Positions 19,271-39,895 of a DNA stretch of 64,000 nt are shown here, piece by piece. The DNA is from Minisyncoccota bacterium. GTDB taxonomy: Bacteria > Patescibacteriota > Minisyncoccia > Phycocordibacterales > JAQTLZ01. Made by a program: the position numbers and the translations under genes. Positions within the stretch are counted from its first letter, which is position 1. Each line of letters opens with the position of its first letter. The stretch spans positions 21,237 to 85,236 of the forward strand of contig JAQTLZ010000003.1 of the NCBI GenBank assembly GCA_028714635.1, in the 5' to 3' direction. A model generated the notes under the pieces. It worked only from the letters and a program-made list of their open reading frames with translations, made no database searches and was not told where the DNA came from.

Positions 19271-21199
19271 ATGACAGGAAAACCACTCTATCTTTCTGCC
19301 CTTGTCGATGACAAATCGGGAGAAACAAAAAATCCGCCGGAAATGAAAAAATCCGCGCCAGTTCAGCATGCTCAAAAAAACCGGCATACCCCGCAAGCAG
19401 GAGGATTCCGACAAGGAGGCCATGGCAAATCACGAGGAGCGCGCCACGGCGACCACAGACGCAGAATGCGGCCGTCCCAACCGCATATGGGTAAAGTTGC
19501 TGACGACAAAATTCCTCCGATTGGAGACGCGATTCGGGTGATTCCTCTCGGCGGAGTGGAAGAGATCGGCAAAAACATGATCGCAATTGAATATGGCGAT
19601 GATATTGTCGTCATTGATATGGGTTTCCAATTTAAGGACGAAAATACGCCTGGAATTGACTACATTTTGCCCAACACAAAGTATCTTGAAGAAAGGAAAG
19701 ACAAAGTGCGCGCAGTTATTATCACCCACGGACACCTCGACCACACCGGAGGAATTCCCTACCTTATGGAAAGAATTGGAAATCCCCCGCTCTATTCTCG
19801 CGCTTTAACGACAATCATGATCCGCAAGCGACTGGAAGAATTTCCCCATATTCCCAAGGTAGATATTCGCGTAGTTGAAAAAGAGGAGACAATCATGGCG
19901 GGAAAGCTCAAAATCCGCTTCTTTTCTGTGTCCCACACGATTCCTGACTCAATGGGAATCATTGTCGAAACACCGTACGGCGTCATCGTCGACCCGGGAG
20001 ATCCGAAACTTGACCATGTAGACGGCGTGCCAACAGAAGCAGAACAAAAAGAGTATTCAAAATTCGACAAAGAAAATGTGTTGATGCTCTTAAACGACTC
20101 GACCAACATCGAAAACCCAGGATTTTCTACTCCAGAAAGACTTGTGCACAAAAATCTCGAAGAAATTATCCGTTCGATCAAAGGACGCCTCATTATCGGT
20201 ACATTTGCGTCACAGCTCGAGCGAATCATGCACATTATTTTGTGCGCGGAGAGATTCGGCAAAAAAGTGGTGATTGAGGGACGAAGTATGAAAGGAAATG
20301 TTGAAGTAGCAAGGGCTTCAGGAATGCTCACCGTAAAACCAGAGACAATTATTCCTGTTGAAGAGATCGAAAACTACCCAGCAGATAGAATTGTCGTGCT
20401 TTCTACCGGTGCGCAAGGAGAAGAATTTGCCGCTCTTATGAGAATTTCTACAAAATCTCACAGACATTTGAAACTTCGAAAAGGTGATACAGTTCTGCTT
20501 TCTTCCTCGATTATTCCTGGAAACGAAAGAACAGTTCAGAAACTCAAGGACAATTTGACCCGACAAGGAGCAAAAATAATCCACTATCGAACCTCTGACG
20601 TCTATATTCACTCGACAGGACACGGAAACCGAGGCGAGCTCGAGTGGATGTTCAAGCATATTCATCCAAAATTCTTTATGCCGGTTCACGGACATCACTA
20701 CATGCTTCACTTGCACGCAGAGATGATCGAAAATCTCGGAATGCCGAAAGAAAATATTATTGTTCCAGATAATGGGACTATCGCCGAAATCCGGGACAAA
20801 GGCACAAAACTTGTCCGTTTGAAAGAAAAAGCGCCTTCAGGACTTGTGCTTGTCGACGGTTTCGCTATCGGAGACGTGCAGGAAGTAGTGCTACGAGACC
20901 GGCAGATGCTCGCGGAAGACGGAATGTTCGTCATCATTGCGACTGTTGATTCTCGAACGGGAAAACTGAAGAAATCTCCGGATATTATTTCCCGAGGATT
21001 CGTTTACTTGCGAGAATCGCAAGAACTCCTTCGCCTCGCCCGCATTATCATCAAAAAAACCGTGGAAGATTCTTCAAAAGGAATGAACCCAATCAATTTT
21101 GACTTCGTAAAGCAAAACGTGACCGAAGAAGTGGGGAAATTCCTCTTTCAAAAGACAGCAAAACATCCAATTGTTATCCCGGTACTACTCGGAGTATAA
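19271..21199 (+). CDS. rnj: Ribonuclease J (beta-CASP metallo-beta-lactamase RNase)
   Basis: IRVIPLGGVEEIGKNMIAIEYGDDIVVIDMG, HGHLDHTGGIPYL and a beta-CASP C-terminal half. It has a ~80-aa Arg/Gly-rich N-terminal extension, and the true start might be an internal Met. Confidence 0.85.
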   Translation: MTGKPLYLSALVDDKSGETKNPPEMKKSAPVQHAQKNRHTPQAGGFRQGGHGKSRGARHGDHRRRMRPSQPHMGKVADDKIPPIGDAIRVIPLGGVEEIGKNMIAIEYGDDIVVIDMGFQFKDENTPGIDYILPNTKYLEERKDKVRAVIITHGHLDHTGGIPYLMERIGNPPLYSRALTTIMIRKRLEEFPHIPKVDIRVVEKEETIMAGKLKIRFFSVSHTIPDSMGIIVETPYGVIVDPGDPKLDHVDGVPTEAEQKEYSKFDKENVLMLLNDSTNIENPGFSTPERLVHKNLEEIIRSIKGRLIIGTFASQLERIMHIILCAERFGKKVVIEGRSMKGNVEVARASGMLTVKPETIIPVEEIENYPADRIVVLSTGAQGEEFAALMRISTKSHRHLKLRKGDTVLLSSSIIPGNERTVQKLKDNLTRQGAKIIHYRTSDVYIHSTGHGNRGELEWMFKHIHPKFFMPVHGHHYMLHLHAEMIENLGMPKENIIVPDNGTIAEIRDKGTKLVRLKEKAPSGLVLVDGFAIGDVQEVVLRDRQMLAEDGMFVIIATVDSRTGKLKKSPDIISRGFVYLRESQELLRLARIIIKKTVEDSSKGMNPINFDFVKQNVTEEVGKFLFQKTAKHPIVIPVLLGV

Positions 21200-21236
21200 T
21201 TGAAACGAGTAGAAATTTATTATTTATTTAAAAACC

Positions 21237-21779
21237 ATGGATACAAACACAAGTGGGAATGTGCCACAAGCAAGTGCGCCCAAGTCTAGAAAGAATCTTA
21301 TTATCATTATTCTCGTCTTACTTGTTGTTCTCTTCTTGGGAGGCAAAGTGCTTGGATTTCTGGGAAGAAATGCCGCAAAGCAGGCGATAGAACAAGCAAC
21401 GGACGGAAATATAAGCGGAGATGGTACTTCTGGAACAATCACAACAAAAGATGGCAGCGTATCGTACGGAACTAATTCCCTGCCGACAGATTGGCCGACT
21501 GATGTGCCTGTCTATACAAACGGAACTATCCAATACAGCGCTTCTTCAAATCAAAGCGGTCAAACAGGAAAAGCTGTCGTAATTCTTTCTCCTGATTCTG
21601 TCGCAACGGTAAAAAGCTATTACACAAGCGCACTTCCTCAAAATGGATGGACAATTAAGGGCACTCAAGAAGCTAACGGAGCGACGGTTATCGTGGCAGA
21701 GAAAAGCGGACGAAATCTTTCTCTCTCGATAGTTGGCTCTTCAGAAGGAACACAAATTACTCTTGGAACAGATAAATAG
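21237..21779 (+). CDS. Hypothetical membrane-anchored, Ser/Thr/Gly-rich secreted protein
   Basis: N-terminal TM (LIIIILVLLVVLFLGG). No recognisable catalytic motif. Confidence 0.5.
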   Translation: MDTNTSGNVPQASAPKSRKNLIIIILVLLVVLFLGGKVLGFLGRNAAKQAIEQATDGNISGDGTSGTITTKDGSVSYGTNSLPTDWPTDVPVYTNGTIQYSASSNQSGQTGKAVVILSPDSVATVKSYYTSALPQNGWTIKGTQEANGATVIVAEKSGRNLSLSIVGSSEGTQITLGTDK

Positions 21780-21784
21780 TGCTC

Positions 21785-21940
21785 GGAACATCCTTACAAA
21801 GACAGCAGAAAAAAGCCCCAGCGGGCTTTTTTCCTTATCCTCGACGGTTTCCACTGTGGTATAGTTTTGCCCCAAAGGCAAAATTACACCACATCGGACC
21901 AAGCAAACTCCCCTGCGGACTGTCTTTGTAAGGATGTTCC
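21785..21940. repeat. Perfect 21-bp inverted repeat (GGAACATCCTTACAAAGACAG / CTGTCTTTGTAAGGATGTTCC) enclosing 114 bp that holds a terminator hairpin and a second imperfect hairpin
   Basis: Arms at 21785..21805 and 21920..21940, read directly from the sequence. Confidence 0.8.
21813..21832 (+). terminator. Intrinsic terminator for 21237..21779
   Basis: AAGCCC-CAGC-GGGCTT hairpin followed by TTTTTT. Confidence 0.65.
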
Positions 21941-21970
21941 TCGTTTACACCTAGCGTGGGGACAACATTT

Positions 21971-21999
21971 TTGAGACCGAAGAGTATTGGCAGTATAAT
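21971..21999 (+). promoter_or_regulatory. Sigma70-like promoter TTGAGA-17 nt-TATAAT, 7 nt upstream of ATG 22007 (leaderless MFS mRNA)
   Basis: -35 at 21971..21976 and a perfect -10 at 21994..21999. Confidence 0.55.
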
Positions 22000-22006
22000 A
22001 AAGCGC

Positions 22007-23179
22007 ATGAGACACGTAATAGCCCACCTGAAAAAGGAGAAATATTTTAGCTATATATACCTCTGTGCTTTTCTCCTCTCTCTCCACTACGCTTTTGTTT
22101 TATATATAAACTCAAGTTTTCTCGAACAGTTTCTTTCAACTCAAACGATAGCATTTCTTTTCATTGGAAGTGCTCTCATTAACATCACCATCCTTCTCAA
22201 TATCACGACACTCCTCCGTCGATTCGGGAATTGGAGACTTATGCTTTCATTCCTCGTGCTTGAGATGATAGGAATGCTTGGGATGTCCCTCTCTACAAAT
22301 GGAGCGAGCGCAAGCATCTCATTCCTCGTCTTTGGAAGCATGGCATCCATCCTCCTTTTTAATTTGGATATTTTTCTCGAGACAGAAATCAAAACAGAGA
22401 CACATACGGGCGGAATTAGGGGAATTTTCCTCACTATGTGCAATCTGGCCTTCGTCCTTTCCCCGTTCGTGGTCGGCCATCTGATCGGAGAAAATAATTA
22501 CACGAGCGTTTATACGCTTTCATTTATCTTTCTTTTGCTTCTCCTTCCTATCATCATGTCGAAATTTAAAGGATTTAAGGACCCCGACTACTCTCCCATG
22601 CACGTAGGAAACGCTCTCTCGCATTTCAAAGGAAACGGCAATCTATTCCATATTTATGTGACGAATTTTCTCCTGCATTTTTTCTATGCAGTCATGATTA
22701 TATACACACCGATCTATCTGCATCAATATATCGGTTTTTCATGGGGAACGATCGGAGAGATGTTTAGTATCATGCTTATTCCGTTCATTCTTTTCCAAAT
22801 TCCCGGGGGAGAAATTTCAGATCATTTCGGCGAAAAAGGCATCCTCATCGTGGGGCTCATTGTTATGGCTATCTCAACCCTTTTCCTCTCTTTTATCGGT
22901 CAAAACGTGGTAGCGTGGACGATACTTCTGTTTTTCACCAGATGCGGAGCATCGCTCGTAGAAATTATGACTGAAACATATTTTTTCAAGCACGTAAAAG
23001 GAAAAAACTCCAATGTCATCGGCTTTTTCAGGACAGCAAGTCCCCTCTCTTTCGTTATTACTCCGATCGTGGCGACGCTCTTTTTGCTTCTTTTTCCAAT
23101 GCAATACCTCTACCTTCTTGTAGGCGTTATGCTCCTTCTCGGAATTCAGTTCGCTTACAGTATAAAAGATACTATCTAG
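22007..23179 (+). CDS. MFS transporter (12 TM)
   Basis: Hydrophobic 12-helix protein with an MFS-like loop after TM2 (RRFGNWR). I chose the start at MRHVIAHL because the promoter lies inside the longer track ORF (21956..). Confidence 0.7.
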   Translation: MRHVIAHLKKEKYFSYIYLCAFLLSLHYAFVLYINSSFLEQFLSTQTIAFLFIGSALINITILLNITTLLRRFGNWRLMLSFLVLEMIGMLGMSLSTNGASASISFLVFGSMASILLFNLDIFLETEIKTETHTGGIRGIFLTMCNLAFVLSPFVVGHLIGENNYTSVYTLSFIFLLLLLPIIMSKFKGFKDPDYSPMHVGNALSHFKGNGNLFHIYVTNFLLHFFYAVMIIYTPIYLHQYIGFSWGTIGEMFSIMLIPFILFQIPGGEISDHFGEKGILIVGLIVMAISTLFLSFIGQNVVAWTILLFFTRCGASLVEIMTETYFFKHVKGKNSNVIGFFRTASPLSFVITPIVATLFLLLFPMQYLYLLVGVMLLLGIQFAYSIKDTI

Positions 23180-23183
23180 AAAT

Positions 23184-24140
23184 TTATATTGCAGCTTTTT
23201 GTCTGCAAGCGTTCGAAGTCCTGACTCCCTCGTTATAGGTTGCGGCATCAGCTTGTCTTGTGTCGATAAGAGCGTCGTACTTCGTAACGAGAGCGTTGTA
23301 TTCGACTACTTTTTTGTTGTATGTTGAATCGTCAGATGCAGCATCTATTTCCGCCTTTTTTGCTTTAAGCATTTTTTCCAAGCTGGCAATCTGCGCATCC
23401 AGAGATTTAATTTCCGCTTTCAGGGTAATGGAAGGCTCTGGACAAGCCGAAGAGGGCAAACCAAAACTCTGCACCGCTATCCACGTTTCCTGCCCCTCAT
23501 AGAGGCCTTTCCCGACAGCTACCCCAATTTCTTTGTATTTTGGCTGCAAAATATTCTCTTTGTGTCCGGGAGATGCCATCCATGCGGCAATAAGCGTCGC
23601 GTCATCCTTAAAATTTCCAAGCGCGAGATTCTCTCCTACAATGATGTAATCGTAGCCGACACTTTTCGCCAGATCTCCCGGTCCTACTCCGGACGGAGAG
23701 ACGTGTTCAAAATATTGTTTTGCAAACATATCCTGCATTTTTTTCTGAGCATCGGCATCAAGAAGAGCGTTTTCTTTGAGTAAAGATAAGGAAACTTTCG
23801 CTCTTTCAGCATTGGTAAGGGAGATAACTCCGCTTCGCGTAAGATTTCCAGTCTCCTTGCTTGATGCGACCCGAAGCGGAGAAGGAGCAAAAATTTTCTC
23901 GGAGAGGTTTTGGAGCGCAGGAATAATACTAAGCGGAGAAGCGGATTTTGAAGCGCTTGGATTTTCTGTTTTCTTGTTTTCTGTCTGGCCTAAAAATGAC
24001 AGAACTTTTTCGGGAACAAGCGCGCGGACGTTATCTACTGCCTTATTAAGGCGCGCCCAGGAAAGCGGAATGCGGAGAAAATATGCAAGGATGAGAATAA
24101 GGAGAACAATCGAGAGAAGGAATTTTATAAATTTCCACAT
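23184..24140 (-). CDS. CAP/SCP (PR-1-like, YkwD-type) domain secreted protein with an N-terminal TM anchor and a C-terminal coiled coil
   Basis: GENLALGNF...WMASPGHKENIL...YKEIGVAV matches the bacterial CAP-domain signature. It is convergent with the MFS gene with only 4 bp between the stops. Confidence 0.7.
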   Translation of the reverse strand: MWKFIKFLLSIVLLILILAYFLRIPLSWARLNKAVDNVRALVPEKVLSFLGQTENKKTENPSASKSASPLSIIPALQNLSEKIFAPSPLRVASSKETGNLTRSGVISLTNAERAKVSLSLLKENALLDADAQKKMQDMFAKQYFEHVSPSGVGPGDLAKSVGYDYIIVGENLALGNFKDDATLIAAWMASPGHKENILQPKYKEIGVAVGKGLYEGQETWIAVQSFGLPSSACPEPSITLKAEIKSLDAQIASLEKMLKAKKAEIDAASDDSTYNKKVVEYNALVTKYDALIDTRQADAATYNEGVRTSNACRQKAAI

Positions 24141-24193
24141 GACATTTTATTGGACATATTATATTCCAATATAATACAAAGAGAAAGGGAAAC

Positions 24194-24883
24194 TTATGAG
24201 TGTATTCGAGTGCCTTTAAACGGTTCTCCTTTCAAATATGCGTCGAGATTGATGAGATTATTGCCGTTCATAACCACAACTTCCAAGCCAAAATTTTCAG
24301 CTTCTTTTGCGGCGATAGGGTCAAACGGAGAGCTCATTCCCGGCTCCCACTTTTCCGGAATAATCTTTCGAAATTCCGCCCAAGAAATATCTTCGATTAT
24401 TTTTGCGTTGGGATTTTTTCTCGGATCTTTATCGTACACATAGTTGATATTCGAAAGATTAACAAGCTTATTTGCTCCGATATTTTTAGCGATAAGGACC
24501 GCATCTTCATCGGTACTGCAACCAGGTTCGTATCCCGCTCCTATAAGCACCGCTTCTTTGAAATCAACGGGAGTGCTTGGGTTATCTACAACATGCGGAT
24601 GCGAAAGGGGTGCGAATATGGCACGCAAAAGTTCAGCATTCAGTTTGGTCGCTCCAATTCCAACCCAGTCCGCGTCAGAAGCGCTTACTTCCGGAGAAAT
24701 TGCTCGCGCTGCTTCTTGATAATTTCGAGCAGTTTTTCCTCCTCCAGCAATAACAGCAAAACGAGTGCCGTTTTGAGTATGTCGAACAATAAGTTCCTTG
24801 AATTTCTTTATAAAATCCACATCGATCTGATGCGGGACAAGAATCGAACCGCCGACAGAGATAATAATTGGGCTTTTATCCAT
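24194..24883 (-). CDS. pyrH: Amino-acid-kinase-fold UMP kinase (archaeal-type PyrH)
   Basis: IIISVGGSILVP...FAVIAGGGKTARNY, the GGG-x-x-RxY motif of uridylate kinases; about 229 aa. Confidence 0.55.
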   Translation of the reverse strand: MDKSPIIISVGGSILVPHQIDVDFIKKFKELIVRHTQNGTRFAVIAGGGKTARNYQEAARAISPEVSASDADWVGIGATKLNAELLRAIFAPLSHPHVVDNPSTPVDFKEAVLIGAGYEPGCSTDEDAVLIAKNIGANKLVNLSNINYVYDKDPRKNPNAKIIEDISWAEFRKIIPEKWEPGMSSPFDPIAAKEAENFGLEVVVMNGNNLINLDAYLKGEPFKGTRIHS

Positions 24884-24916
24884 GGCTCATATAGTAGCAA
24901 AAGAAAATCTTTGAAG

Positions 24917-25483
24917 CTAGTTTCTGCCTCTCAAAGCCTCTCCGTCTCGGATGACAATGATTTTCTCTCCTTCGAAACGGATTACCGCCGAAGGTCTCCC
25001 GTTCAGAACTCCCCCGTCTTCGTAAAAATCAGCTTTTTCGCCAAAATATTTTTTTGCTTCATCGATCGTCCTAGCCGGAAGAAAGTCCTGCGGATTCGCG
25101 CTTGGAGCAACCAGAGGACCCGTTTTTTTCAAAATTTTTAGTAAGTTTCCGTCTTGAGGTAACCGAAAAGCCAGTGACTTTCCTCCGCGATGAAGATACG
25201 CGAATTTTTCATCAGCCACACCGAAAATAATGCTTACTTTTCCAGGCCAGAATCCGAGAATTTGTTCTCGCAGCTTTTCTGAAAGAACCACGCCGAACTT
25301 TTCCACGTCATCAATCGAGGAAATAAGTATAATGCACGGCTTATCTTTGTCTCTTTGCCGCAATTCATAGATCCTCTCGACGGCTTTCGCAGATATGGCG
25401 GAGCCGACAAGCCCATAAAGAGTATCGGTCGGAATTATTCCAACGCCGTCATTTTTAAGAATAGAAATATAATCCTCCTTCAT
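24917..25483 (-). CDS. tsaC: L-threonylcarbamoyladenylate synthase (TsaC/YrdC/Sua5 family)
   Basis: GIIPTDTLYGLVGSA hallmark motif and a YrdC-fold length of 188 aa. Confidence 0.75.
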   Translation of the reverse strand: MKEDYISILKNDGVGIIPTDTLYGLVGSAISAKAVERIYELRQRDKDKPCIILISSIDDVEKFGVVLSEKLREQILGFWPGKVSIIFGVADEKFAYLHRGGKSLAFRLPQDGNLLKILKKTGPLVAPSANPQDFLPARTIDEAKKYFGEKADFYEDGGVLNGRPSAVIRFEGEKIIVIRDGEALRGRN

Positions 25484-26121
25484 ACGTCAAGATGAGCATG
25501 ATCATTCCAGACAAGAAGTTTCCAGCCTTTTGTTTTCAAATCCTTTTTTCCCGGATCATACTCGACAACCGTGATCCCAGTATTTTTTGTTGCGAAAAAA
25601 GCTCCGAATTTAGAGAAAGTGGGCAAAGTCAATTCTTCATCTAAAAGAGCGAGAGCCACGCACATCCGAAGAAGCCGGGCGTGTGTCACGACAAGAAGAT
25701 GCTCTGCTTTCGTATTTTTGAAGAGATCAATCGCTTTGCGGGCGCGGGATTTCAGATCAGAAAAACTTTCCTCATCCGAATAATGCCAGTCTTCATTCAA
25801 ATTTCCTTTGACTTGGCTCCAAATTTTTTGATAAGACTCGTCTTCGAGCGATTTTCCAATAAGTTCCGATGGGACTTTCCATTCAGTGATAAGGTCTGAA
25901 TATTCGATCTCTTTCCCAATCACTTTCGCTATGATTTCGGCCGTTTCTTTTGTGCGAACATAGGTGCTCGAAAAAATCCTATCAATCGGAATTTTCTTGA
26001 GACGTTTCCCCACAGATTGAGCTTGTTTCTTGCCAGTTTCTGTAAGAGGATCGTTGGGGCCTTGGCACAGCCGCGCTTTATCAGCAACATCCTCGCCATG
26101 GCGCACAAAATATATCTTCAT
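25480..26121 (-). CDS. Histidine phosphatase family protein (phosphoglycerate-mutase-like)
   Basis: MKIYFVRHGE... with the catalytic RHG motif, plus a downstream HARLLRM-like region. Confidence 0.7.
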   Translation of the reverse strand: MKIYFVRHGEDVADKARLCQGPNDPLTETGKKQAQSVGKRLKKIPIDRIFSSTYVRTKETAEIIAKVIGKEIEYSDLITEWKVPSELIGKSLEDESYQKIWSQVKGNLNEDWHYSDEESFSDLKSRARKAIDLFKNTKAEHLLVVTHARLLRMCVALALLDEELTLPTFSKFGAFFATKNTGITVVEYDPGKKDLKTKGWKLLVWNDHAHLDV

Positions 26122-26945
26122 TTCGAAATTGTAAGCTTTTGGCGAAGATACGCAAGTGATCCGATAAGACCCCCCGAATCGGCAAGCTCCGCTTTTTTTA
26201 TAGCCGGTACAGATGGAAAAGCTTTGAGGAGCTCTCCGACATGTTTCGCGACATTCTCCACCGATATGCCCACTTTCTTTACCACCATGCTCCCTCCGAT
26301 AACAACGACATCTGGTGACCAGAAGAGAAGTGCATTATGAACACCGACAGCCGCGATTTTTTCAACACCCTCCCACACTTTAGGATCTGTAATCTCGCCT
26401 GGATGCTTGCCATATTTTTCCTGTACGGCCACGCCGTCGATCAGCTCTCCAAGAGATTTATTATTCACGTAATCAATAATTTGATAGCCAGGTTCAAAAT
26501 TAAAATGAGCCTTGTCAATCTTTCCTTCAACAATCCGGCACCCCCCAACACCAGTCGATACGGTTATGTAGGTTACAATAGGAAATCCTCTCCCCGCCCC
26601 CTCCGTCGCTTCACCAAGACCAACCATAGCGGTATCATTTTCAATAAAAACAAAAGATTTTGTGATATCGGCGATAGTCTCATGGAGGGGCTTGCTAACC
26701 CAACCTTGGAGATGCTTGCAGACCATGAGTCGTTCATGCCTTTCATCGAAAGTTCCAGGCATGCCGCCAGCCACAGCTAAGATTTTTTCTCCCTGAGAGA
26801 TTTTTTCTACCGCACCGCGAAACAAATCTCCCATTTTAGAAAAATCCTGCGGAGTATCTACGACAACAGGTTCGAGAAGTGTTTTGCCGTCCTTCGAACC
26901 AGCAATGCGCATTTTTGTTCCCCCAATATCAAATACAATATACAT
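26118..26945 (-). CDS. ROK-family sugar kinase (glucokinase-like; no HTH domain)
   Basis: MYIVFDIGGTKMRIA..., ASKHA fold, 275 aa, no N-terminal DNA-binding domain. Confidence 0.6.
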   Translation of the reverse strand: MYIVFDIGGTKMRIAGSKDGKTLLEPVVVDTPQDFSKMGDLFRGAVEKISQGEKILAVAGGMPGTFDERHERLMVCKHLQGWVSKPLHETIADITKSFVFIENDTAMVGLGEATEGAGRGFPIVTYITVSTGVGGCRIVEGKIDKAHFNFEPGYQIIDYVNNKSLGELIDGVAVQEKYGKHPGEITDPKVWEGVEKIAAVGVHNALLFWSPDVVVIGGSMVVKKVGISVENVAKHVGELLKAFPSVPAIKKAELADSGGLIGSLAYLRQKLTISK

Positions 26946-26947
26946 AT

Positions 26948-27913
26948 TTATGAGATGAGCTTTTTAAATTCTTCTACCATCGGGACCTGTTCCGCTTCTA
27001 CTCCATACAACATTGCCGTGTGATATGCGGTCCAATCGGCAAGTAAAAGCGAACTGAAAACTTTCTCGCTTCTCGTCGCACCGGAAAGCGGATATTCATA
27101 TACAACAATTCCGCGGTCTTCATACAGTTTTTTTGTGACCTTAAATCGCTTGCGGTTTTGCGGATGGTCAGCATCATCAGACAAAAAGAGAAAGACGAAT
27201 TTTTCAGAGAGCGATTTCGTCTTTCCCGCTCGATCAAATCCTGTCATCTCATTATGATTCAATTCCGGAAAAACGTTGCAAAATGAGGGTATTTTACCCG
27301 TTTCGTTGAGTTTTATTTTCCAGTTGTAAGCAACGGACATATTCTTGTCAGAGGCATAAATAACAGGCACTGACCCAGAAAGTTTTTTCGCTAACTCTTT
27401 CCCTTTTGTTTCGAGAGCCTTCGGATCAAGCTTTGTCGCGAGAGTATTGAGTTCTTTGAGCAATTTTTTATTCCCCAAAAGCGTGACGAGAGCAAGCAAA
27501 GAAAAACCAAGAGCGCTTCTTGGTTGAATTCCAGTGTCCGGCAAAACAATTCTCGGAATATCATTTTTCTCAGCAAATTGGATGAGCTTTCCCCCGACAG
27601 CTATGACCGCAAGATTCAAACCCTTGTCGAAGGCGGTCTTTGCGAAATCAATTGTTTCTTCTGTGTTTCCAGAATAGGAAGATGCAATATAGAGAGTCTC
27701 GCTTCTTTGAGCTTCAGTATAAAAAGGCAATCCATAATTTCTATGAATCGTTATGGGAATTTCAACATCGAGCGCAGATAAAAGATCCGCCGAAAGATGC
27801 GAACCTCCCATTCCCCCTACTACTACCTGTCCAAACACCTGTAATTTATCCTCATCCTCTATCTTTGGCTTCCAAGCAAACTGTTTTGCAAAATCTCGAA
27901 TTGCTTTGTCCAT
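26948..27913 (-). CDS. Bifunctional phosphoglucose/phosphomannose isomerase (SIS domain, archaeal type)
   Basis: VVVGGMGGSHLSADLL and SSYSGNTEET, with SIS-domain architecture and a length of about 320 aa. Confidence 0.6.
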   Translation of the reverse strand: MDKAIRDFAKQFAWKPKIEDEDKLQVFGQVVVGGMGGSHLSADLLSALDVEIPITIHRNYGLPFYTEAQRSETLYIASSYSGNTEETIDFAKTAFDKGLNLAVIAVGGKLIQFAEKNDIPRIVLPDTGIQPRSALGFSLLALVTLLGNKKLLKELNTLATKLDPKALETKGKELAKKLSGSVPVIYASDKNMSVAYNWKIKLNETGKIPSFCNVFPELNHNEMTGFDRAGKTKSLSEKFVFLFLSDDADHPQNRKRFKVTKKLYEDRGIVVYEYPLSGATRSEKVFSSLLLADWTAYHTAMLYGVEAEQVPMVEEFKKLIS

Positions 27914-27917
27914 GTTT

Positions 27918-28859
27918 TTAATGATTATTTTTTACCTGCCCCGTAGTCAGCTTCGCTGTACTACTGGGGTTTTCTATCGAATGCCCGCCGAATTGGTTTC
28001 GGAGCGCTGAAAGAATTTTACCAATATAGCTCGGTGTAGTTCCAGATTCAACTCGGAATTTGAATGAGTCTTCAATCACTTTCGCAGGAATTCCTAATTC
28101 TTTCCCTGCATTTACCGTCCACTCACCTTCTCCGGTATGAGAGACAGTGCCGGAAACTTCAGCCAAGTTTTTCCCGAATTTTCTATACGCATCTGAAAGC
28201 CAGCCGACAAGACGTGATTCGATGACAGAGTGATGATTATAGATTTCAGTCACCTTCAAAAGATCGAGATCAAATTCTGATTTTTCAAGAATTGCAAAAC
28301 CTTCCGCAAGCGATTGCATCATGCCGTATTCGATTCCGTTATGCACCATTTTTGTAAAATGCCCTGCTCCCGCTTTTCCTAAATATGCATAGGCTTCCGG
28401 TGCAGCAATATCTTTGAATAAATCTTCATGTTTTTTAAATACTTCTTCCTCCCCGCCGATCATAAGGCAAGCTCCTTCGCGGGCTCCTTTTGGCCCGCCT
28501 GATGTTCCAATATCAAGAAAATGAATCTCTTTCGAAGCGAGATCTTTCGCTCTTCGCATCGAATCTTTATAAAAAGAATTTCCGCCATCAATAATCGTAT
28601 CGCCCTTTTCGAGAAACCCGATAAATTCGGAAATGACAGAATCGACAACGTTATTCGGAACCATGACCCAAACAGTGCGAGGAGTAGGAAGTTCGGCAAG
28701 AAGCGCTTCATACGAGTCGGCTACGCGTAAACCAGCCTTTTTGCCCTCAAGACGAGGTTCTGGACTTCGATTATACGCAATAACGTCCTGTTTCTTCTCG
28801 TGCAGGCGTAAAACCATATTCATTCCCATTTTTCCAAGTCCGATATATCCGAGTTTCAT
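27918..28859 (-). CDS. gnd: Decarboxylating 6-phosphogluconate dehydrogenase, short (YqeC/Gnd-like) form
   Basis: MKLGYIGLGKMGMNMV Rossmann start, and HTGEGEWT in the C-terminal 6PGD domain. Confidence 0.65.
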   Translation of the reverse strand: MKLGYIGLGKMGMNMVLRLHEKKQDVIAYNRSPEPRLEGKKAGLRVADSYEALLAELPTPRTVWVMVPNNVVDSVISEFIGFLEKGDTIIDGGNSFYKDSMRRAKDLASKEIHFLDIGTSGGPKGAREGACLMIGGEEEVFKKHEDLFKDIAAPEAYAYLGKAGAGHFTKMVHNGIEYGMMQSLAEGFAILEKSEFDLDLLKVTEIYNHHSVIESRLVGWLSDAYRKFGKNLAEVSGTVSHTGEGEWTVNAGKELGIPAKVIEDSFKFRVESGTTPSYIGKILSALRNQFGGHSIENPSSTAKLTTGQVKNNH

Positions 28860-28866
28860 ATGTGTA

Positions 28867-29442
28867 TTATAGCAGTAATTTTCTTCTTGTAACTAACAGA
28901 AGAACAAAAAAGCCATTCGAGAAAAGAAGAGTGCCCAAATAAAGAGTCGTTGTGATTGAATAGTGTGAAAGAGCAAATATATCAAAAACAACCGCAAGCG
29001 CGCTCATAAAATAGGTTGAAATTGTTTCTGTGAAAGGTTCTTCATATCCTTTTCTATAAGTAGGCAAAAACCCAACAAAATCTATTATCGAGATCAAGAT
29101 TACTGAATGGAGAGCGTTCTTCTCGAACAACCAGATACCTATTGCAATGAGAGAACCGACCAGACATATTGTGTCAAATTTTGTTATATTTTTTGTTCCA
29201 TATTTCAAAGAAAGGAGAAACATGCAAGTACACAGAAATGCTCCTATACCGAGTCCTAATACTCCATAACCACCGCGATCACTCAAAATAGCTAGTACGC
29301 CGACAGATTGTAAGATACTCCATACAAGCCAGGAGTAAGAATGGGGATTGGTCTTTTTTAAAAACACATCCCGAAAATAAGGCGCAAAACAAGCAATAGA
29401 AAAGATACTTGCCACTATTCCAAATAAAAGTTTTATAGACAT
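28867..29442 (-). CDS. Hypothetical polytopic membrane protein (about 6 TM)
   Basis: Hydrophobicity pattern only. Tightly packed inside the minus-strand operon. Confidence 0.4.
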   Translation of the reverse strand: MSIKLLFGIVASIFSIACFAPYFRDVFLKKTNPHSYSWLVWSILQSVGVLAILSDRGGYGVLGLGIGAFLCTCMFLLSLKYGTKNITKFDTICLVGSLIAIGIWLFEKNALHSVILISIIDFVGFLPTYRKGYEEPFTETISTYFMSALAVVFDIFALSHYSITTTLYLGTLLFSNGFFVLLLVTRRKLLL

Positions 29443-29443
29443 A

Positions 29444-30433
29444 TCATTTAAAAATCACCTTCGCAGCATCCCAAAATTCAGGATGGCCGTTTTGCTTCAT
29501 GTAGTACCACCATTCTACTCCCCAGAGATATTGCTCGCCGAAGCTCGTAGTTTTTGCAAAAGTAATAATTGAATTAAATTTGGCGATGTCCATTCGTGAA
29601 AGCTGAAGGTCAATTGGGGCATCTTTTATCGGCGTTAAAAGCCACGGCTCGAGGGAAAGTTCGCTTAAAATATTTTTCTTCTTGCCAAAAACAAGGTCCG
29701 CAATATTTTGCCTTATCCGATAGTATGCCGGGGTAATTGGATATCTGAATTGCCCGAACGTCTGATTCCAGGCATAGAGGTATAAACTCGAGCCAAAGAC
29801 ATCACCATCTCGTTTGGCGCCCCACCACGTCCCGAGCTCTCCGCTATCCGTCAAAAGCACAGGATGAGCGGGATCAAGTTTTTTGACCAGTTCGATCTCT
29901 TTCTTCAAAAAAGATTCGTCAAACGGCTTGCACCATTCTTTGGCGTAGATAGTAAAGAAGGGTTCATTCTCAACCTGCCAATAGGTAATGTTGCCGTAAT
30001 TTTTATAACGATTAACGGTTTTTTCAATGTATTCCAAGAGTTTCCTCTCCCCCGTTTCTTTATCCAAAGACCATTCCCACTCTGGCGCATGACACTCCGG
30101 CCAGACAGGAAGCCTGCGACCAACCGAAAAAATAACAGACGCTCCTGCGCGTTTTGCTTCGCTCATTTGGAAATCCATATTTGAATAATCAAAAACACCG
30201 TCTTTCGGTTCGATATCCTGCCAATACGCAGACAACCGCAGATTTTTTACTTGCAGATCCTGGAGCATTGCCTCGTAGACCGCTTTCCAGTCTAAGCCGA
30301 GCTCAAGCGCATGAAGCGTGCTAAAAGAAACACCGTAGGTAATTTTTTCTGGCACAGCACGAAAAGAGAGAAATACGAAAATCAATACGAGAGCTAAAAT
30401 AATCCAAAAGAGATATTTTAATAAACGTCTCAT
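29444..30433 (-). CDS. Clan GH-A glycoside hydrolase (GH5-like) with a signal anchor
   Basis: WQVENEP contains the NEP catalytic acid/base motif, on a (beta/alpha)8-like protein of appropriate length with an N-terminal TM. Family assignment is tentative. Confidence 0.5.
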   Translation of the reverse strand: MRRLLKYLFWIILALVLIFVFLSFRAVPEKITYGVSFSTLHALELGLDWKAVYEAMLQDLQVKNLRLSAYWQDIEPKDGVFDYSNMDFQMSEAKRAGASVIFSVGRRLPVWPECHAPEWEWSLDKETGERKLLEYIEKTVNRYKNYGNITYWQVENEPFFTIYAKEWCKPFDESFLKKEIELVKKLDPAHPVLLTDSGELGTWWGAKRDGDVFGSSLYLYAWNQTFGQFRYPITPAYYRIRQNIADLVFGKKKNILSELSLEPWLLTPIKDAPIDLQLSRMDIAKFNSIITFAKTTSFGEQYLWGVEWWYYMKQNGHPEFWDAAKVIFK

Positions 30434-30568
30434 CCCGTAGTGAAAAATGGCATCGCTCCTCTGGAGCAGTTATGCTTCTTTTCTAATTAAAGCTGATAGG
30501 TTCGACTTTTGCATATATATCTATATGATTTCAACTTCTCCAATGCCATTTTCTACTACGGGACTCAT
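30429..30568. repeat. MITE-like element copy 1: 26-bp terminal inverted repeats (CCCGTAGTGAAAAATGGCATCGCTCC ... GGAG-ATGCCATTTTCTACTACGGGA) around an AT-rich ~90-bp core, flanked by the direct repeat CTCAT
   Basis: IR-L at 30434..30459 and IR-R at 30538..30563. CTCAT sits at 30429..30433 and 30564..30568. The left CAT is the start codon of the GH5-like gene. Confidence 0.6.
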
Positions 30569-30571
30569 AGC

Positions 30572-31465
30572 CTAGTGGATAAAAAGGAGCATAAAACCGG
30601 CAACAATAAAAGACACCGATATGACTTTATGAAATATTTCGTATGAATACTTCGGACTGTATACGAATTCCGAAAATCTCTTCCCAAATAAAAATCCAAA
30701 AAGAAGCAGAAAGACATATTGAAGCCCCACAAGAGCGTTCACGAGAGATGCACTCGAGAGCTTGATAGTGTAGAGAATAAGAACAGCAGCCACTCCAGCA
30801 AGCACTTTGCCGAGCACCACCATGGCTTTCGTTCCGGAACTCGACTGCCTGAATCCTTCTTTTATAAGCCGGAGATTGTTCGGCCAGAAGAAAAGAGTGA
30901 GTGCTCCGAAAACATTGCCAATACGCGACCAGAAAAACCCATTGATGAAAGTGGTATCGGCAAGCACTATTTTTACAAACACAGACGAAAGCCCGAGAGC
31001 GAGGCCGGAAGCGAAAATATAAAAAAAGATCTTCGGCTTGAAACTAAAATGCGAAGTGAGAAGCGTCCCGAGGATGAGGAAGAAGGAAGAAAGAAGAAAT
31101 GAGCTCGGCAAACTTTCTTTCAGAATGAAAAAAGAAAAAATAAAAGTCGAGATCGCTATCGCCGCGCCGACTACGGGCACCACATCCGCAGGATCTTTGA
31201 CGCGCCGAAGAGCCTTGTACAGATACACGATCGCCTGGATATAGGTGACGCCGGAAAGAAGAGCGAGAATAGTAATTTTCGTGCTTGGAAAAAAGATCTT
31301 TCCAGTGGGGATAAGAACAAGCACGATGGACGAGAGTGCGCCGACAAAAAAAGCGTAGACAACTGAATGAGGAAATTTCTTCGTCACCAAATACTTATCG
31401 AAGAGGACGACGAGAGCGTTCAAGAGCTCCGCACAAACGACTAAAAGAATCCAGAGATAAGCCAT
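30572..31465 (-). CDS. EamA/DMT-family transporter (10 TM)
   Basis: Two repeated 5-TM halves with EamA-like Gly-rich segments. Confidence 0.65.
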   Translation of the reverse strand: MAYLWILLVVCAELLNALVVLFDKYLVTKKFPHSVVYAFFVGALSSIVLVLIPTGKIFFPSTKITILALLSGVTYIQAIVYLYKALRRVKDPADVVPVVGAAIAISTFIFSFFILKESLPSSFLLSSFFLILGTLLTSHFSFKPKIFFYIFASGLALGLSSVFVKIVLADTTFINGFFWSRIGNVFGALTLFFWPNNLRLIKEGFRQSSSGTKAMVVLGKVLAGVAAVLILYTIKLSSASLVNALVGLQYVFLLLFGFLFGKRFSEFVYSPKYSYEIFHKVISVSFIVAGFMLLFIH

Positions 31466-31469
31466 AGGT

Positions 31470-32642
31470 TTAGGAAATACTATTCATCTCGCATATTTTC
31501 TTATACAACAGGGCTGAGGGGCGAATCGTCCTCTCCATTGTATCATAATTTATTTTCACCAAGCCGAAACGTTTCGTAAATCCTTCCGCCCATTCGTAGT
31601 TGTCGAGAAGCGACCAGTAGAAAAATCCCCGGACATCTGCCCCGCCCTGTATCGCTTGGTGCACCGCAACTAGGTGATCTTTGATGAATTTCCCCCTCTG
31701 ACTGTCATTCGCGTCTGCAATGCCGTTTTCTGTTATATAGAGCGGTTTTTTATATTCTTTGAGCTCTAAAAGCACATTTCGAAGTCCATCTGGATAAATA
31801 GTCCAGCCCATGTCAGTTCGGGGCAGATTTTCAAGCTTTCCAAATGCAATGTGTCGATAGTAATTGACGCCGATGAAATCCTGGCACTCCCGAATACCCT
31901 TCAGAAATTTATGATTCCAGAATTTTCGGGAGAAATTTGCCCGCACATCATTCCACCATCCTCCGCCAGAGCCGAAATCCATATTCTGTTTTGCAATCCC
32001 GATCTGGATCGAAGGATTTTTCTTTTTCATTTCGATGTATGCAAACCGGTGAGATTTCATTAAAATTTTAAGCGCTTTCCAATATTTTAGAATGTCTCTT
32101 TTGAATGGTGGCCAGCCTCCGCGAAGATATCCGTTCCCAAGCCAGACCATGGGCTCGTTCATGGTCATCCAAAATTTCGCTTCGCTTCCGAGTTTCTCTG
32201 CAACATACGCACAGTATCGCCCGAAAATCTCAGGCGCTTTTTTATTTTCAAATCCACCCTTGTCCCGAAACCAAATCGGCAGAGTAAAATGCCAGAGCGT
32301 CACAAACGGCTCTAGCCCCCGAGCTTTCAGTACATGAAGCACCTTTCGATAATGCTCGATTTCTCTATCATCAAATTTTCCTTCTTCGGGTTCAATACGA
32401 GCCCACTCTATAGAGAATCTATGCGTGTTTTGGGAGAGTGATTTCGCAATATCAAAATCTTTTTCGTACAAATTATAGTGGTCACAAGCCTTGCCAGTGA
32501 TAGGAACCTTTTTCTTTCGTCCAGCTTCGGCCCAATCAACATTTTCAATTCCTCCTTCTACCTGATAAGAAGCCGTCGCACTTCCCCACAAAAACCCTTT
32601 CGGGAATTCGAGTGCATTTCGAGCAGAAACATTTTTTTTCAT
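31470..32642 (-). CDS. Beta-glucosidase, glycoside hydrolase family 1
   Basis: FPKGFLWGSATASYQVEGG N-terminal signature, TMNEP acid/base and YITENGIA nucleophile motifs. Confidence 0.9.
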   Translation of the reverse strand: MKKNVSARNALEFPKGFLWGSATASYQVEGGIENVDWAEAGRKKKVPITGKACDHYNLYEKDFDIAKSLSQNTHRFSIEWARIEPEEGKFDDREIEHYRKVLHVLKARGLEPFVTLWHFTLPIWFRDKGGFENKKAPEIFGRYCAYVAEKLGSEAKFWMTMNEPMVWLGNGYLRGGWPPFKRDILKYWKALKILMKSHRFAYIEMKKKNPSIQIGIAKQNMDFGSGGGWWNDVRANFSRKFWNHKFLKGIRECQDFIGVNYYRHIAFGKLENLPRTDMGWTIYPDGLRNVLLELKEYKKPLYITENGIADANDSQRGKFIKDHLVAVHQAIQGGADVRGFFYWSLLDNYEWAEGFTKRFGLVKINYDTMERTIRPSALLYKKICEMNSIS

Positions 32643-32794
32643 CCCGTAGTGAAAAATGGCATTATTTGCTCGCCATTTCTATAGTTAAGCGAATAATTGA
32701 TAAGTATGTATTGTAAATCATTTTAATGTATCTCTATCTAAAATCACAAATCTCGCAAATGGGGAGCGATGCCATTTTCTACTACAGGATTCAT
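32638..32794. repeat. MITE-like element copy 2: the same terminal inverted repeats as copy 1, flanked by the direct repeat TTCAT
   Basis: IR-L at 32643..32662 (CCCGTAGTGAAAAATGGCAT) and IR-R at 32763..32789 (GGAGCGATGCCATTTTCTACTACAGGA). TTCAT sits at 32638..32642 and 32790..32794. The left CAT is the start codon of the GH1 gene. Confidence 0.6.
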
Positions 32795-32890
32795 AGAAAG
32801 ATTATAACAGAAATCTGTTTAGACACAGGGAAGAAAAACCTTGACCAAAGCCATAATTTTCATTATTATGTGCGCCTAGTTCTTTAGCAT

Positions 32891-32940
32891 TTTCGTCATA
32901 GCAGAAAGGCGCTTTAGGGCTCTTTTCTGCTATGACGAAA
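32891..32940. promoter_or_regulatory. Perfect 17-bp palindrome (TTTCGTCATAGCAGAAA-16 nt-TTTCTGCTATGACGAAA) 51 nt upstream of the xylose-isomerase-like gene
   Basis: Arms at 32891..32907 and 32924..32940. Candidate operator or 5'UTR hairpin. Confidence 0.5.
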
Positions 32941-32990
32941 CCATTGTGGATTTTGTCAGAGGCAAGGGAAAGGTAGAGGAGGAACGAAGT

Positions 32991-34298
32991 ATGACGCAGG
33001 AAAGAATAGTCAGACCGCAAAGAGTCTCACACTTTGCGTGCCAGTCGGTCTTTTTGACCCTAGGCAAGCAGGGAGGATTCAAGACGCTCGACGATTTCCT
33101 GAAGTTCGCGAAGAACGACTGCGGATTCGAAGCCGTCAGCATCCCGACCTGCCCGCCGCTCATCGACATGGCTCAAGCGAGCAAAAGCAAGAGCTACTGC
33201 GCCGATCTGCTCGGCAAGTACGAGAAACACGGCCTTCCGCTTCTGCGCCTCGAAGGCCATACGTCCACACAGTGCGTATGTCTCGATCCGTCACGAAAGC
33301 TGAAGTTCGGCCACTTCATGAGCCCGAAGTTCCGGAAGTTGAAGCATCGCCAAATCGAAAAGCTGGCCGTCAAGGAAGTCAAGAAAGCGATCGATGTGAC
33401 GGCGGCACTGGGTCTCAAACATCTCGTCGCGTTCTGCGGTGGGCGTTCGTTCGCCGTGGCACAAGCGAAATGGGCGGCGTGGCCGAAGTATTTCGCGGCC
33501 TGGTCGCTCGCGCTTCTGGCGTACAAATGGAACGACATCCTGGAATACGCGGCGGAGCGCGGCGTGATCCTCATGTTCGAGATCGGACATCCGGAAAACG
33601 ATCTCCTGACTGCACAAAACTGCATCGACTTCCGCAAGATGCTTACTCCGAAGGCCCGCAAAGCGTTCGGCGTGAACGCGGATCGGTCGCATTTCCGGAA
33701 CGTCGGGACAGATGAGTTGAATCACTTCCGACGCATATTGAAAGATGGGATCCCGATCACCAATCATTACAAGGACGGGATCTACGTCGATCGCGGAGAT
33801 GGAACGGCTTCGCCCTATGGCGGACTCGAGCCGTGGAGCAATTCCGCGGGGACGTTTGCCACAATCGGTATCGTCGGTGACGAGACGGCCCTGCAGGAGT
33901 ACAACGGGCTGATGGCAGAAGCCCACGCAACACAAGAAGGTGGAGTGGACATACACCACGAAGCCGAATGTGTGTTCATCCCTAACCCGAAACAGGGGAT
34001 GATCGTCGGGGCGCACAACTGCCGCGCACTCCGCGATGAAACACCGCTCATCCGGTTCAATAACGTAGCACCGGATACTGATCTCACTCCGTTCTCTACT
34101 ATGGGACGACGCGAACTCGTAGGCGCAGACGGAGCGCCGATGGTTTTGAAGCGGTGGGGCGGTGGGCCATTCGACAAGTTCGCTGATATCCCGGTTTCCG
34201 CACCGGAGCTTCTGTCGCTCTTGGCCGATGAACGGGATGGCTGTGTGGCAATCCTGGAACGAGCAGGATACACAGAGGCTGCCGCAATCAGAAACTAA
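32991..34298 (+). CDS. Xylose-isomerase-like TIM-barrel sugar isomerase (possibly a divergent xylose isomerase), GC-rich foreign gene
   Basis: 435 aa, with VAFCGGRSF (compare WGGREG) and ILMFEIGHPEN (compare FLIEPKP) motifs. GC is ~65% against ~42% in the flanks, and it has a strong SD GGAGGAGGAA 7 nt before ATG 32991 that is unique in the window. The track ORF begins earlier at 32946. Confidence 0.5.
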   Translation: MTQERIVRPQRVSHFACQSVFLTLGKQGGFKTLDDFLKFAKNDCGFEAVSIPTCPPLIDMAQASKSKSYCADLLGKYEKHGLPLLRLEGHTSTQCVCLDPSRKLKFGHFMSPKFRKLKHRQIEKLAVKEVKKAIDVTAALGLKHLVAFCGGRSFAVAQAKWAAWPKYFAAWSLALLAYKWNDILEYAAERGVILMFEIGHPENDLLTAQNCIDFRKMLTPKARKAFGVNADRSHFRNVGTDELNHFRRILKDGIPITNHYKDGIYVDRGDGTASPYGGLEPWSNSAGTFATIGIVGDETALQEYNGLMAEAHATQEGGVDIHHEAECVFIPNPKQGMIVGAHNCRALRDETPLIRFNNVAPDTDLTPFSTMGRRELVGADGAPMVLKRWGGGPFDKFADIPVSAPELLSLLADERDGCVAILERAGYTEAAAIRN

Positions 34299-39577: not shown

Positions 39578-39745
39578 TGGCGAAGAGGCGCAAGCGCGTA
39601 CTCTTTAATCTCACATCCTTTACTCGAGGACTGACGAAACATACTTTCGTGCGCGGTATTCGGACTTCCCTCTTTCGAGAGTTACCGTAGCGGTACTGTG
39701 CCGGAATTACACCGGACTTCCCCAACGCAACGAAATAATTTTTCA
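39552..39745 (-). ncRNA. Candidate structured leader / riboswitch-like attenuator or small RNA of unknown class
   Basis: A ~190-nt minus-strand segment with moderate GC and several local hairpins (CCGG-UGUAAUU-CCGG, CUCU-CGAA-AGAG, ACGAAA-GUAUG-UUUCGU). It carries two copies of GGGAAGUCCG and ends in a terminator just before a gene start. No convincing protein-coding potential. Confidence 0.35.
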
Positions 39746-39895
39746 AAAACAACAATCAAAACCGGAAACGTATAAGGATATTATATGTCACAGAGAAACA
39801 CGTGCAAGAGTGGATTACTACGCACAGCACACATTAAAATAAAAGCTAGGGAAAAATTTTTAAAGCTCATAAAATAAGGAGATTCCTGGAATTAG

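Follow-up and report, generated by a model that had tools for sequence, protein, structure and literature searches.

Palindromic miniature elements inserted at start codons in Patescibacteria: two copies at glycoside-hydrolase genes

Described palindromic elements and the repeats of the window

The MITEs of bacteria (miniature inverted-repeat transposable elements), among them the Correia elements (CREE/NEMIS) of Neisseria, are about 100–160 bp long, end in terminal inverted repeats of 20–26 bp, duplicate their target, contain no open reading frame (ORF) and occur in many copies. Correia elements often lie beside genes and are co-transcribed with them as long RNA hairpins, which in Neisseria are processed by RNase III; they duplicate TA and are found at varied distances from genes and in either orientation. 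Two repeats of related build are present in a genome assembled from a Minisyncoccota bacterium (GCA_028714635.1). The window analysed here is a stretch of 64,000 nt (contig JAQTLZ010000003.1, positions 21,237 to 85,236), in which copy 1 (129 nt) and copy 2 (146 nt) each precede the start codon of a glycoside-hydrolase (GH) gene. As judged from the junctions in relatives, both repeats are shown to be independent insertions of non-autonomous palindromic miniature mobile elements with target-site duplication. The elements resemble Correia elements and other MITEs in size range, terminal inverted repeats, target duplication, the absence of an ORF and the presence of many copies. They differ from Correia elements in that the duplication is 5 nt long and includes the start codon, 95% of the copies abut the AUG, the orientation is fixed, the host belongs to the Patescibacteria and the arms are unrelated.

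Other described systems share part of this build. REPINs do not duplicate a target, lie mostly at the 3' ends of genes and consist of REP sequences that are each a palindrome. The elements have in common with the REP/REPIN and RAYT system short hairpin repeats, the word GTAG, conserved stems with variable loops, many copies and doublets of about 100 nt, whereas the site duplications here are genuine and no arm is a palindrome in itself. Insertions of Rickettsia palindromic elements (RPEs) keep the reading frame and are translated within the protein; RPEs too are small palindromic mobile elements tolerated in essential genes of a reduced genome, but the elements described here contain stop codons and sit before a regenerated start codon. 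Translational bypass, as at the T4 gene 60 gap and the mitochondrial "byps", involves a structured insert between matching take-off and landing codons. A structured insert flanked by matching codons in an expressed gene is also seen here, but hopping from the distal ATG cannot be obligatory because this codon is destroyed in about 6 of 81 copies. Finally, integron attC sites are imperfect palindromes with a conserved outer part, a variable centre, extrahelical bases and RYYYAAC / GTTRRRY cores. The likeness extends to an imperfect palindrome of about 60–140 nt between genes, with the outer part conserved, the centre variable and bases extrahelical; the differences are that the arms lack a RYYYAAC/GTTRRRY core, that flanking duplications are present and that the syntenic housekeeping neighbours are not cassette-like. 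Measured against these general descriptions, the elements differ from bacterial MITEs, REPINs, RPEs and attC sites in the duplication of the start codon, a near-exclusive location at gene starts and a fixed orientation.

Empty sites in relatives and the build of the two copies

Relatives of the window were found by a search with the GH-like protein, and the four closest (78, 77, 71 and 66% identity) were fetched. The gene order GH1–EamA–GH-like–6PGD–PGI–ROK is the same in 4/4 relatives, the gap from EamA to the GH-like gene is 3–9 nt in the four, and nhmmer detects no element there; each relative has an empty site with a single ATGAG or ATGAA. At the GH-like gene the junctions can be compared base for base. 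Relative L203 reads ...TAAatc-ATGAG-acgttttt and the window ...TAGgct-ATGAG-t[129 nt]ATGAG-acgtttat, and L207 is like L203 (...ATGAG-acgttt, with a single ATGAG). At GH1, L203 reads ggTATACTttttct-ATGAA-aaaaaatgtttc and the window gtTATAATctttct-ATGAA-t[146 nt]ATGAA-aaaaaatgtttc; in a form with a shorter upstream part, the window is TATAATctttct-ATGAA-t[element]ATGAA-aaaaaatgtttc and L203 is TATACTttttct-ATGAA-aaaaaatgtttc. The 5-mers that flank the window copies are single in L203, L205 and L207. A syntenic contig with 58% identity (L129) is also empty, and a metagenome scan with the GH1 protein covered 80 loci (532 kb) and found no element in any of them. Because the empty sites of the relatives carry one copy of the 5-mer, both window copies are read as insertions with target-site duplication. 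A preliminary description of this DNA had proposed MITE-like elements with target-site duplication at start codons, which the four empty relatives bear out, and had suggested a search of related genomes for further copies and empty sites; such a search yields both, with more than 80 loci of like arrangement and the four empty relatives. Its remark that the two copies bracket the GH1–EamA pair has no evident meaning, as the relatives keep the gene order without the element.

The insertions doubled the first 5 nt of each ORF (ATGAG and ATGAA). The distal copy kept the original upstream signals, and the second copy gives the gene a complete start codon again, immediately behind the element. At GH1 these signals amount to a promoter of the leaderless type, whose -10 box is 6 nt before the ATG; the GH-like gene instead has the stop codon of EamA, the cistron ahead of it. 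The empty GH1 sites of L203, L205 and L207 contain TATACT/TATAAT-N6-ATGAA, aligned with the -10 box of the window. This box, TATAAT at 32801–32806 on the minus strand, is preceded by TGT (an extended -10); it is not part of the element and stands 6 nt upstream of the distal ATG. The element had initially been thought to supply the entire promoter. It does not, because the -10 box stays upstream of the distal 5-mer copy, and the 78 cores of the family have no fixed internal -10.

Four 20-nt arms are present in the window, where 0.01 matches are expected by chance and four or more are reached in 0/100 shuffles. Compared with CCCGTAGTGAAAAATGGCAT, the arms at 30434–30453(+) and 32643–32662(+) have no mismatches, that at 30543–30562(-) has 2 and that at 32769–32788(-) has 3. 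The four arms form the two elements, and in both copies they are 20–22 nt long and 90% complementary. The neighbouring genes are all on the minus strand (GH-like ORF 29444–30433, EamA 30572–31465 and GH1 31470–32642), as are the features listed below. On the gene strand, each copy consists of the distal 5-mer, a T, a 5' arm CC(C/T)GTAGTAGAAAATGGCAT, a core of 89 or 106 nt, the 3' arm ATGCCATTTTTCACTACGGG and the proximal 5-mer with which the ORF starts.

Copy 1 is flanked by exact 5-nt direct repeats, CTCAT at 30429–30433 and 30564–30568 (ATGAG on the gene strand). The proximal duplicate (30429–30433) is the first 5 nt of the GH-like ORF, start codon included, and in the empty sites of L203 and L207 the single ATGAG is followed by the same acgttt. 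The gene-proximal 3' arm (30434–30453) pairs in the predicted fold with the gene-distal 5' arm, CCCGTAGTAGAAAATGGCAT on the gene strand (30543–30562). Between them lies a core of 89 nt (30454–30542) that is A-rich on the gene strand and belongs to the subfamily TGGAG...GTCGA...GCTCC-AGA-GGAGCG. The distal duplicate and its linking T (30563–30568) start 3 nt after the EamA stop codon (30572–30574), at an operon-internal site. Copy 2 has exact repeats TTCAT at 32638–32642 and 32790–32794 (gene strand ATGAA), of which the proximal one is the first 5 nt of the GH1 ORF. It is followed by the 3' arm (32643–32662), a core of 106 nt (32663–32768) of the subfamily CGCTC...ATTTGCGAG...ATGGCGAGCAAATA, as in L026, L047 and L048, and the 5' arm CCTGTAGTAGAAAATGGCAT (32769–32788). 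The distal ATGAA with its T (32789–32794) contains the original start codon, which is also the probable transcription start. A long closing stem is predicted for both copies (fold z = -6.3 and -5.5 vs shuffles), and nhmmer finds no copy beyond these two in the 64-kb window. Much of what had been seen beforehand holds: all four arms are where they had been placed, the 5-nt repeats are exact, the left CAT of both copies is the ATG of the downstream gene according to the ORF coordinates, and the cores are unlike each other and fall into separate subfamilies. The right arm is real, but the coordinates and the motif ATGCCATTTTCTACTAC(G/A)GGA first given for it take in one extra base (30563/32789), which sits between the right arm and the distal repeat.

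The element family, its hosts and its place at gene starts

A scan of one genome per species for CCYGTAGTRRAAAATGGCAT gave at least 120 loci, and the family counts that follow refer to the matches listed. The loci come from at least about 50 Patescibacteria assemblies, with host labels Paceibacterota, Nomurabacteria, Zambryskiibacteriota, Wolfebacteria, Minisyncoccia and "Saccharibacteria", and several genomes or metagenome-assembled genomes (MAGs) hold from 6 to at least 10 loci each. Matches outside the candidate phyla radiation (CPR) are few, and all are single unpaired arms. The paired elements number 92; they measure 108–160 nt and have no conserved coding frame, and the arms of the ~130-nt family are CCYGTAGTAGAAAATGGCAT / ATGCCATTTTTCACTACNGG. 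The family thus combines several properties by which MITEs are recognised: terminal inverted repeats, target-site duplication, small size without coding capacity, and dispersed copies with presence/absence differences. The elements have no Rfam match at the gathering threshold or at E<=10, and full-text literature searches on MITEs in CPR bacteria, on leaderless genes in CPR and on the arm sequences themselves returned nothing relevant. The family, which comes from ultra-small Patescibacteria/CPR bacteria, is apparently undescribed. Many MAG contigs end inside or beside an element (L001, L010, L050, L064, L067 and L078), and the repeat therefore fragments short-read assemblies of these genomes. 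One exact arm match is found on a viral contig, IMGVR_UViG_3300038829_000053 (L122 13213–13232), within a 173-aa ORF (...GPVVKNGIV...) and with no partner arm; by a rough estimate, this is consistent with roughly one chance hit for a collection of that size.

The elements are concentrated at gene starts, where 81/92 paired elements lie 0–1 nt before the start codon of an ORF with 50 or more codons. In a rough gene model that scored ATGRA sites outside ORFs of at least 90 aa, gene starts make up only about 25% of such sites, whereas 81 of the 85 scorable elements are at starts (P ~ 5e-43); sequence preference alone therefore does not explain the location. The strict start location probably results from a target preference for ATGRA combined with selection: insertions within ORFs would be lethal, copies elsewhere would be lost, and copies at starts would be protected from imprecise deletion. 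Targeting of transcription starts was considered as the whole answer and set aside, since 29/75 copies are operon-internal, copy 1 among them, and 18 of those 29 have no -10 box. The proteins encoded downstream of the 81 copies fall into 99 Pfam families, mostly housekeeping, and include RbfA, M50 protease, FtsA/PilM, MurG, ScpA, GreA, SecY, MreB, FtsH and aminoacyl-tRNA synthetases. Because the downstream genes are so diverse, the carbohydrate context in the window is regarded as coincidental.

An exact 5-nt duplication is present in 65/81 start-codon copies, in 56 of the 65 as the 5-mer plus T directly before the arm. The duplicated words are ATGAA (30), ATGGA (24), ATGAG (3), ATGTA (3), ATGCA (3), ATGGG (1) and ATGTT (1), together with one GTGAA/GTGAA pair. 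Filled and empty orthologues are found beyond the window: for a 154-aa protein, L055 and L098 are filled and L013 is empty at 77–79% identity; for MurG, L084, L101 and L094 are filled and L065 is empty; for ScpA, four are filled and four are empty. At one orthologue, the core subfamily and the duplication differ by lineage (ATGGA in L043, L057 and L114, ATGCA in L106), which implies repeated insertion. Tandem elements occur in L029, L050, L064, L094, L116 and L072, and in L108 one element is nested in another, inserted at an internal ATGAA of its core.

The family belongs to a superfamily with the termini (T)CCCGT(A/T)AG...CT(A/T)AC(N)GG. The outer termini CC(N)GTAGTAG...TCACTAC(N)GG are common to several relatives, while the inner stems differ yet stay complementary (ATTTTGGCAT / ATGCCAAAAT; AAGTCGGCAT / ATGCCGACTT; AAGTTGAC / GTCAACTT; AATTTCAAAT / ATTTGAAATT). 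The outer arm bases were fixed by the search pattern, and therefore only the inner stem is informative for covariation; there, 8 pairs are changed on both sides (35 cells; 29 distinct arm pairs), and 0/500 shuffles reach the observed covariation. Relatives of ~65 nt, with the inner stem ATTTTGGCAT / ATGCCAAAAT, form near-perfect 20-bp hairpins (L043 1665–1728, L048 2452–2523, L057 924–989, L073, L001 and L029). They lie away from gene starts and are flanked by duplications of unrelated sequence (TATAA, TATGG, TCAA), which argues that the target duplication is genuine. Some ~65-nt relatives begin at a gene's stop codon or right behind it, and these relatives may serve as terminator-like hairpins. 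Another arm family, CCCGTTAGAAAT..., behaves like the first: with arms CCCGTTAGA(A/G)A...T(T/C)TCTAACGGG, it shows the same ATGRA duplication at gene starts and is often in tandem with the first family. Its loci include L096 861–1017 and 2008–2130 (at genes for an epimerase and AspRS), L068 1763–1840 and 4978–5055, L116 and L072. Long-range candidates for an autonomous element in L068 and L096 were rejected, as each proved to be a pair of separate small elements. Mini hairpins of 28–29 nt, CCC(A)GTAGTAGAGCGAAGCTCACTACGGG, have the same termini and are found in the element cores of L050, L051, L064, L074, L108 and L111 and also in L038 and L076; a compensatory variant (GTAGCAG / TCGCTAC) occurs among them, and they have no obvious flanking duplication.

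The window has some further features apart from the elements. A hairpin at 32891–32940 (+) has 22-nt arms with 91% complementarity around a 6-nt loop. It occurs once in the window, is not related to the elements and ends 5 nt before the GTG of a xylose-isomerase-like (AP_endonuc_2) ORF at 32946–34298. An AdoCbl (cobalamin) riboswitch aptamer at 39606–39747 (-) scores 60 bits (gathering score 50) and is the sole Rfam family above threshold in the window. The GC content rises from about 0.42 to 0.48–0.52 at 2–16 kb. The public contig JAQTSW010000021.1 (14,240 bp) covers only the part from 19379 to 33618; an identical GH-like protein is found there and also on a contig of 164.7 kb, so that the window belongs to a longer assembly from the same organism.

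Expression of the downstream gene and competing explanations

Leaderless-type starts are common in these genomes. TATAAT-like -10 hexamers show a sharp maximum at 6 nt upstream of the first ATG (59/772 ORFs in the CPR loci and 6/69 in the window), and Shine–Dalgarno (SD)-like words show only a weak peak. A leaderless-type example is seen at position 22007 of the window (TATAATaaagcgcATG). The core is oriented with respect to the gene, its A-rich strand being the gene strand (A>T) in 71/78 copies (P = 2e-14); in the other seven, A and T are tied or no more than 3 bases apart, and no core is clearly reversed. The centre of the arm stem contains a conserved non-Watson–Crick tandem, A.C plus G.U, in 71/81 copies; both central dinucleotides are swapped in 9/81 copies with the core unchanged, and perfect pairing is rare. 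The start of the core pairs with its end beyond what shuffles give (-7.7 vs -4.7 kcal/mol, P = 8e-11). A call of the functional strand from G.U versus A.C pairs failed, as the sense bias of the core helix vanished against composition-matched shuffles and was an effect of composition.

Together these observations suggest how an insertion at the start codon might be endured. The element would be transcribed within the mRNA, always with the A-rich strand as sense, and the arms would close a stem of about 20–22 bp with the conserved A.C/G.U tandem at its centre. The ~130 nt would then fold into a compact hairpin that hides the AUG triplets of the arms themselves, and, on the simplest reading, the regenerated AUG would be the first accessible start in an SD-independent organism. 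As the genomes are SD-poor and rich in leaderless starts, this AUG should still be usable, and insertion would therefore be tolerated even in essential genes. Processing of the 20–22-bp stem by RNase III is a plausible addition. Coupling through a leader peptide and obligatory hopping are unlikely because no SD precedes the proximal AUG, the distal ATG is sometimes lost (mutated away in the same six or so copies) and the ends of the ORF entered from it are scattered. These stops are spread between 111 nt before the main AUG and 2 nt beyond it, and termination–reinitiation coupling was discarded on this ground. An upstream ORF (MPFFTTG*) had also been proposed; it would have its stop only where the fourth base of the gene is A, and in about 24 of the 65 duplications the word is ATGGA. 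In the CACTAACGGG variant of the arm, which is common, the ATG of the arm is in frame with the gene, which likewise counts against a conserved upstream ORF of this kind. An internal promoter was looked for and rejected, -10-like hexamers having no positional peak in the 78 cores and a consensus scan of the window being not above shuffles.

The repeats are thus best explained as mobile elements that insert at start codons and are probably carried as a hairpin leader of the mRNA, and not as a switch of sugar genes; the explanation as a whole is given a probability of about 0.65. Several observations weigh against it. The 95% occupancy of start codons and the fixed orientation exceed what target preference plus lethality inside ORFs would give, and an additional targeting step may exist. 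In the sense RNA of the arm stem, A.C mismatches are as common as G.U pairs, without strand bias; because of this and because the bias of the core is compositional, pairing could matter in DNA rather than in RNA. The arms are almost invariant and the cores weakly conserved, unlike a neutral selfish repeat, which points to selection on the arms that the explanation accounts for only loosely. Lastly, a search of about 0.9 Mb of CPR loci for an autonomous partner (a transposase gene between termini of this kind) found none, nor any copy with an insert of transposase size.

A bolder form of the explanation, which we put forward as a speculation with the odds clearly against it, would have the superfamily home actively to start codons, recognising more than ATGRA, and be "transparent" to expression. 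The arm helix with its tandem at the AUG would then be a recognition element, either for the translation apparatus (in SD-independent start selection or in transfer of the ribosome from the distal to the proximal AUG) or for a processing enzyme that regenerates a leaderless mRNA. To our knowledge, a mobile translation-initiation cassette is a kind of element that has not been described in bacteria.

The near-invariance of the arms across about 50 assemblies, with diverging cores, would also fit a cis-regulatory leader that has been domesticated. On this view, a factor conserved in Patescibacteria (for example RNase III, a dsRNA-binding protein or the ribosome) would bind or process the arms, and the element would persist by controlling translation or stability of the mRNA, with mobility as its origin only. 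The central A.C/G.U tandem, kept even where both dinucleotides are swapped while perfect Watson–Crick stems are rare, the fixed orientation, the placement of the stem 0–1 nt from the AUG, and orthologous ScpA copies kept, with -10 box and distal ATG conserved, in genomes only 62–73% identical can all be cited for such a role. However, in the closest relatives of the window genome this operon is expressed with no element present, one orthologue carries various core subfamilies and duplications by lineage, as expected of repeated insertion, and tandem and nested copies occur. The core, moreover, has no conserved junction nucleotides typical of ligand- or protein-binding RNAs, and a riboswitch is further opposed by the lack of an Rfam match and by the functional incoherence of the downstream genes (99 Pfam families, 81 genes). 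Domestication is therefore considered improbable, though it is the strongest of the rivals.

Much less likely is a REPIN/REP-like or IS200/IS605-like single-strand hairpin moved by an HUH enzyme (Y1/RAYT), for which ATGRA would be a target or cleavage word instead of a duplication from a staggered cut. The arms do contain GTAG, the tetranucleotide typical of REPs, the hairpin is imperfect with conserved bulge- or mismatch-like features, insertion is orientation-specific beside a short specific word, and 28-nt mini hairpins share the termini. Within one core subfamily, however, the flanking repeats differ between sites, and they agree with the single copy of the empty sites; the ~65-nt relatives have unrelated duplications, GTAG lies inside the stem, not 5' of it, and no Y1 transposase was found, although no search aimed at one was made.

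An operator pair had been offered in the preliminary description as the alternative, with a sugar-responsive (or other) transcription factor looping out the promoter in a shared carbohydrate module. Two glycoside-hydrolase genes do have, in their upstream regions, a pair of inverted 20-bp sites with a centre-to-centre distance of about 110–126 bp, which might suggest this, but it is already contradicted and has next to no standing: the 99 Pfam families downstream of the 81 copies have no functional theme, the promoter is outside the arm pair, relatives with the same operon lack the sites, and operators do not show target-site duplications, tandem arrays or nested copies. An inverton, in which the inverted repeats would serve as recombination sites and the segment would flip the gene on or off, is equally hard to credit, for although inverted repeats do surround a short AT-rich segment beside gene starts and in a minority of copies the central dinucleotides are swapped in both arms, those copies keep the usual core orientation, the A-rich strand is sense in 71/78 cores with none clearly reversed, and no promoter is conserved within the 78 cores.

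For the window, the insertion of mobile elements at start codons does away with the regulatory link that had been suggested for the two glycoside-hydrolase genes. On the practical side, the elements break MAG assemblies and mislead gene-start calling, and they offer a natural marker for studying the population genetics of uncultivated Patescibacteria at the level of strains. If the explanation is true, streamlined CPR genomes of about 1 Mb would carry dozens of copies of an element whose niche is the opening five nucleotides of genes, essential ones (secY, murG, ftsA and aminoacyl-tRNA synthetases) among them. This raises the question of how a DNA element finds start codons, or survives only there, and of how SD-poor, leaderless-rich bacteria choose a start codon directly behind a 20-bp helix.

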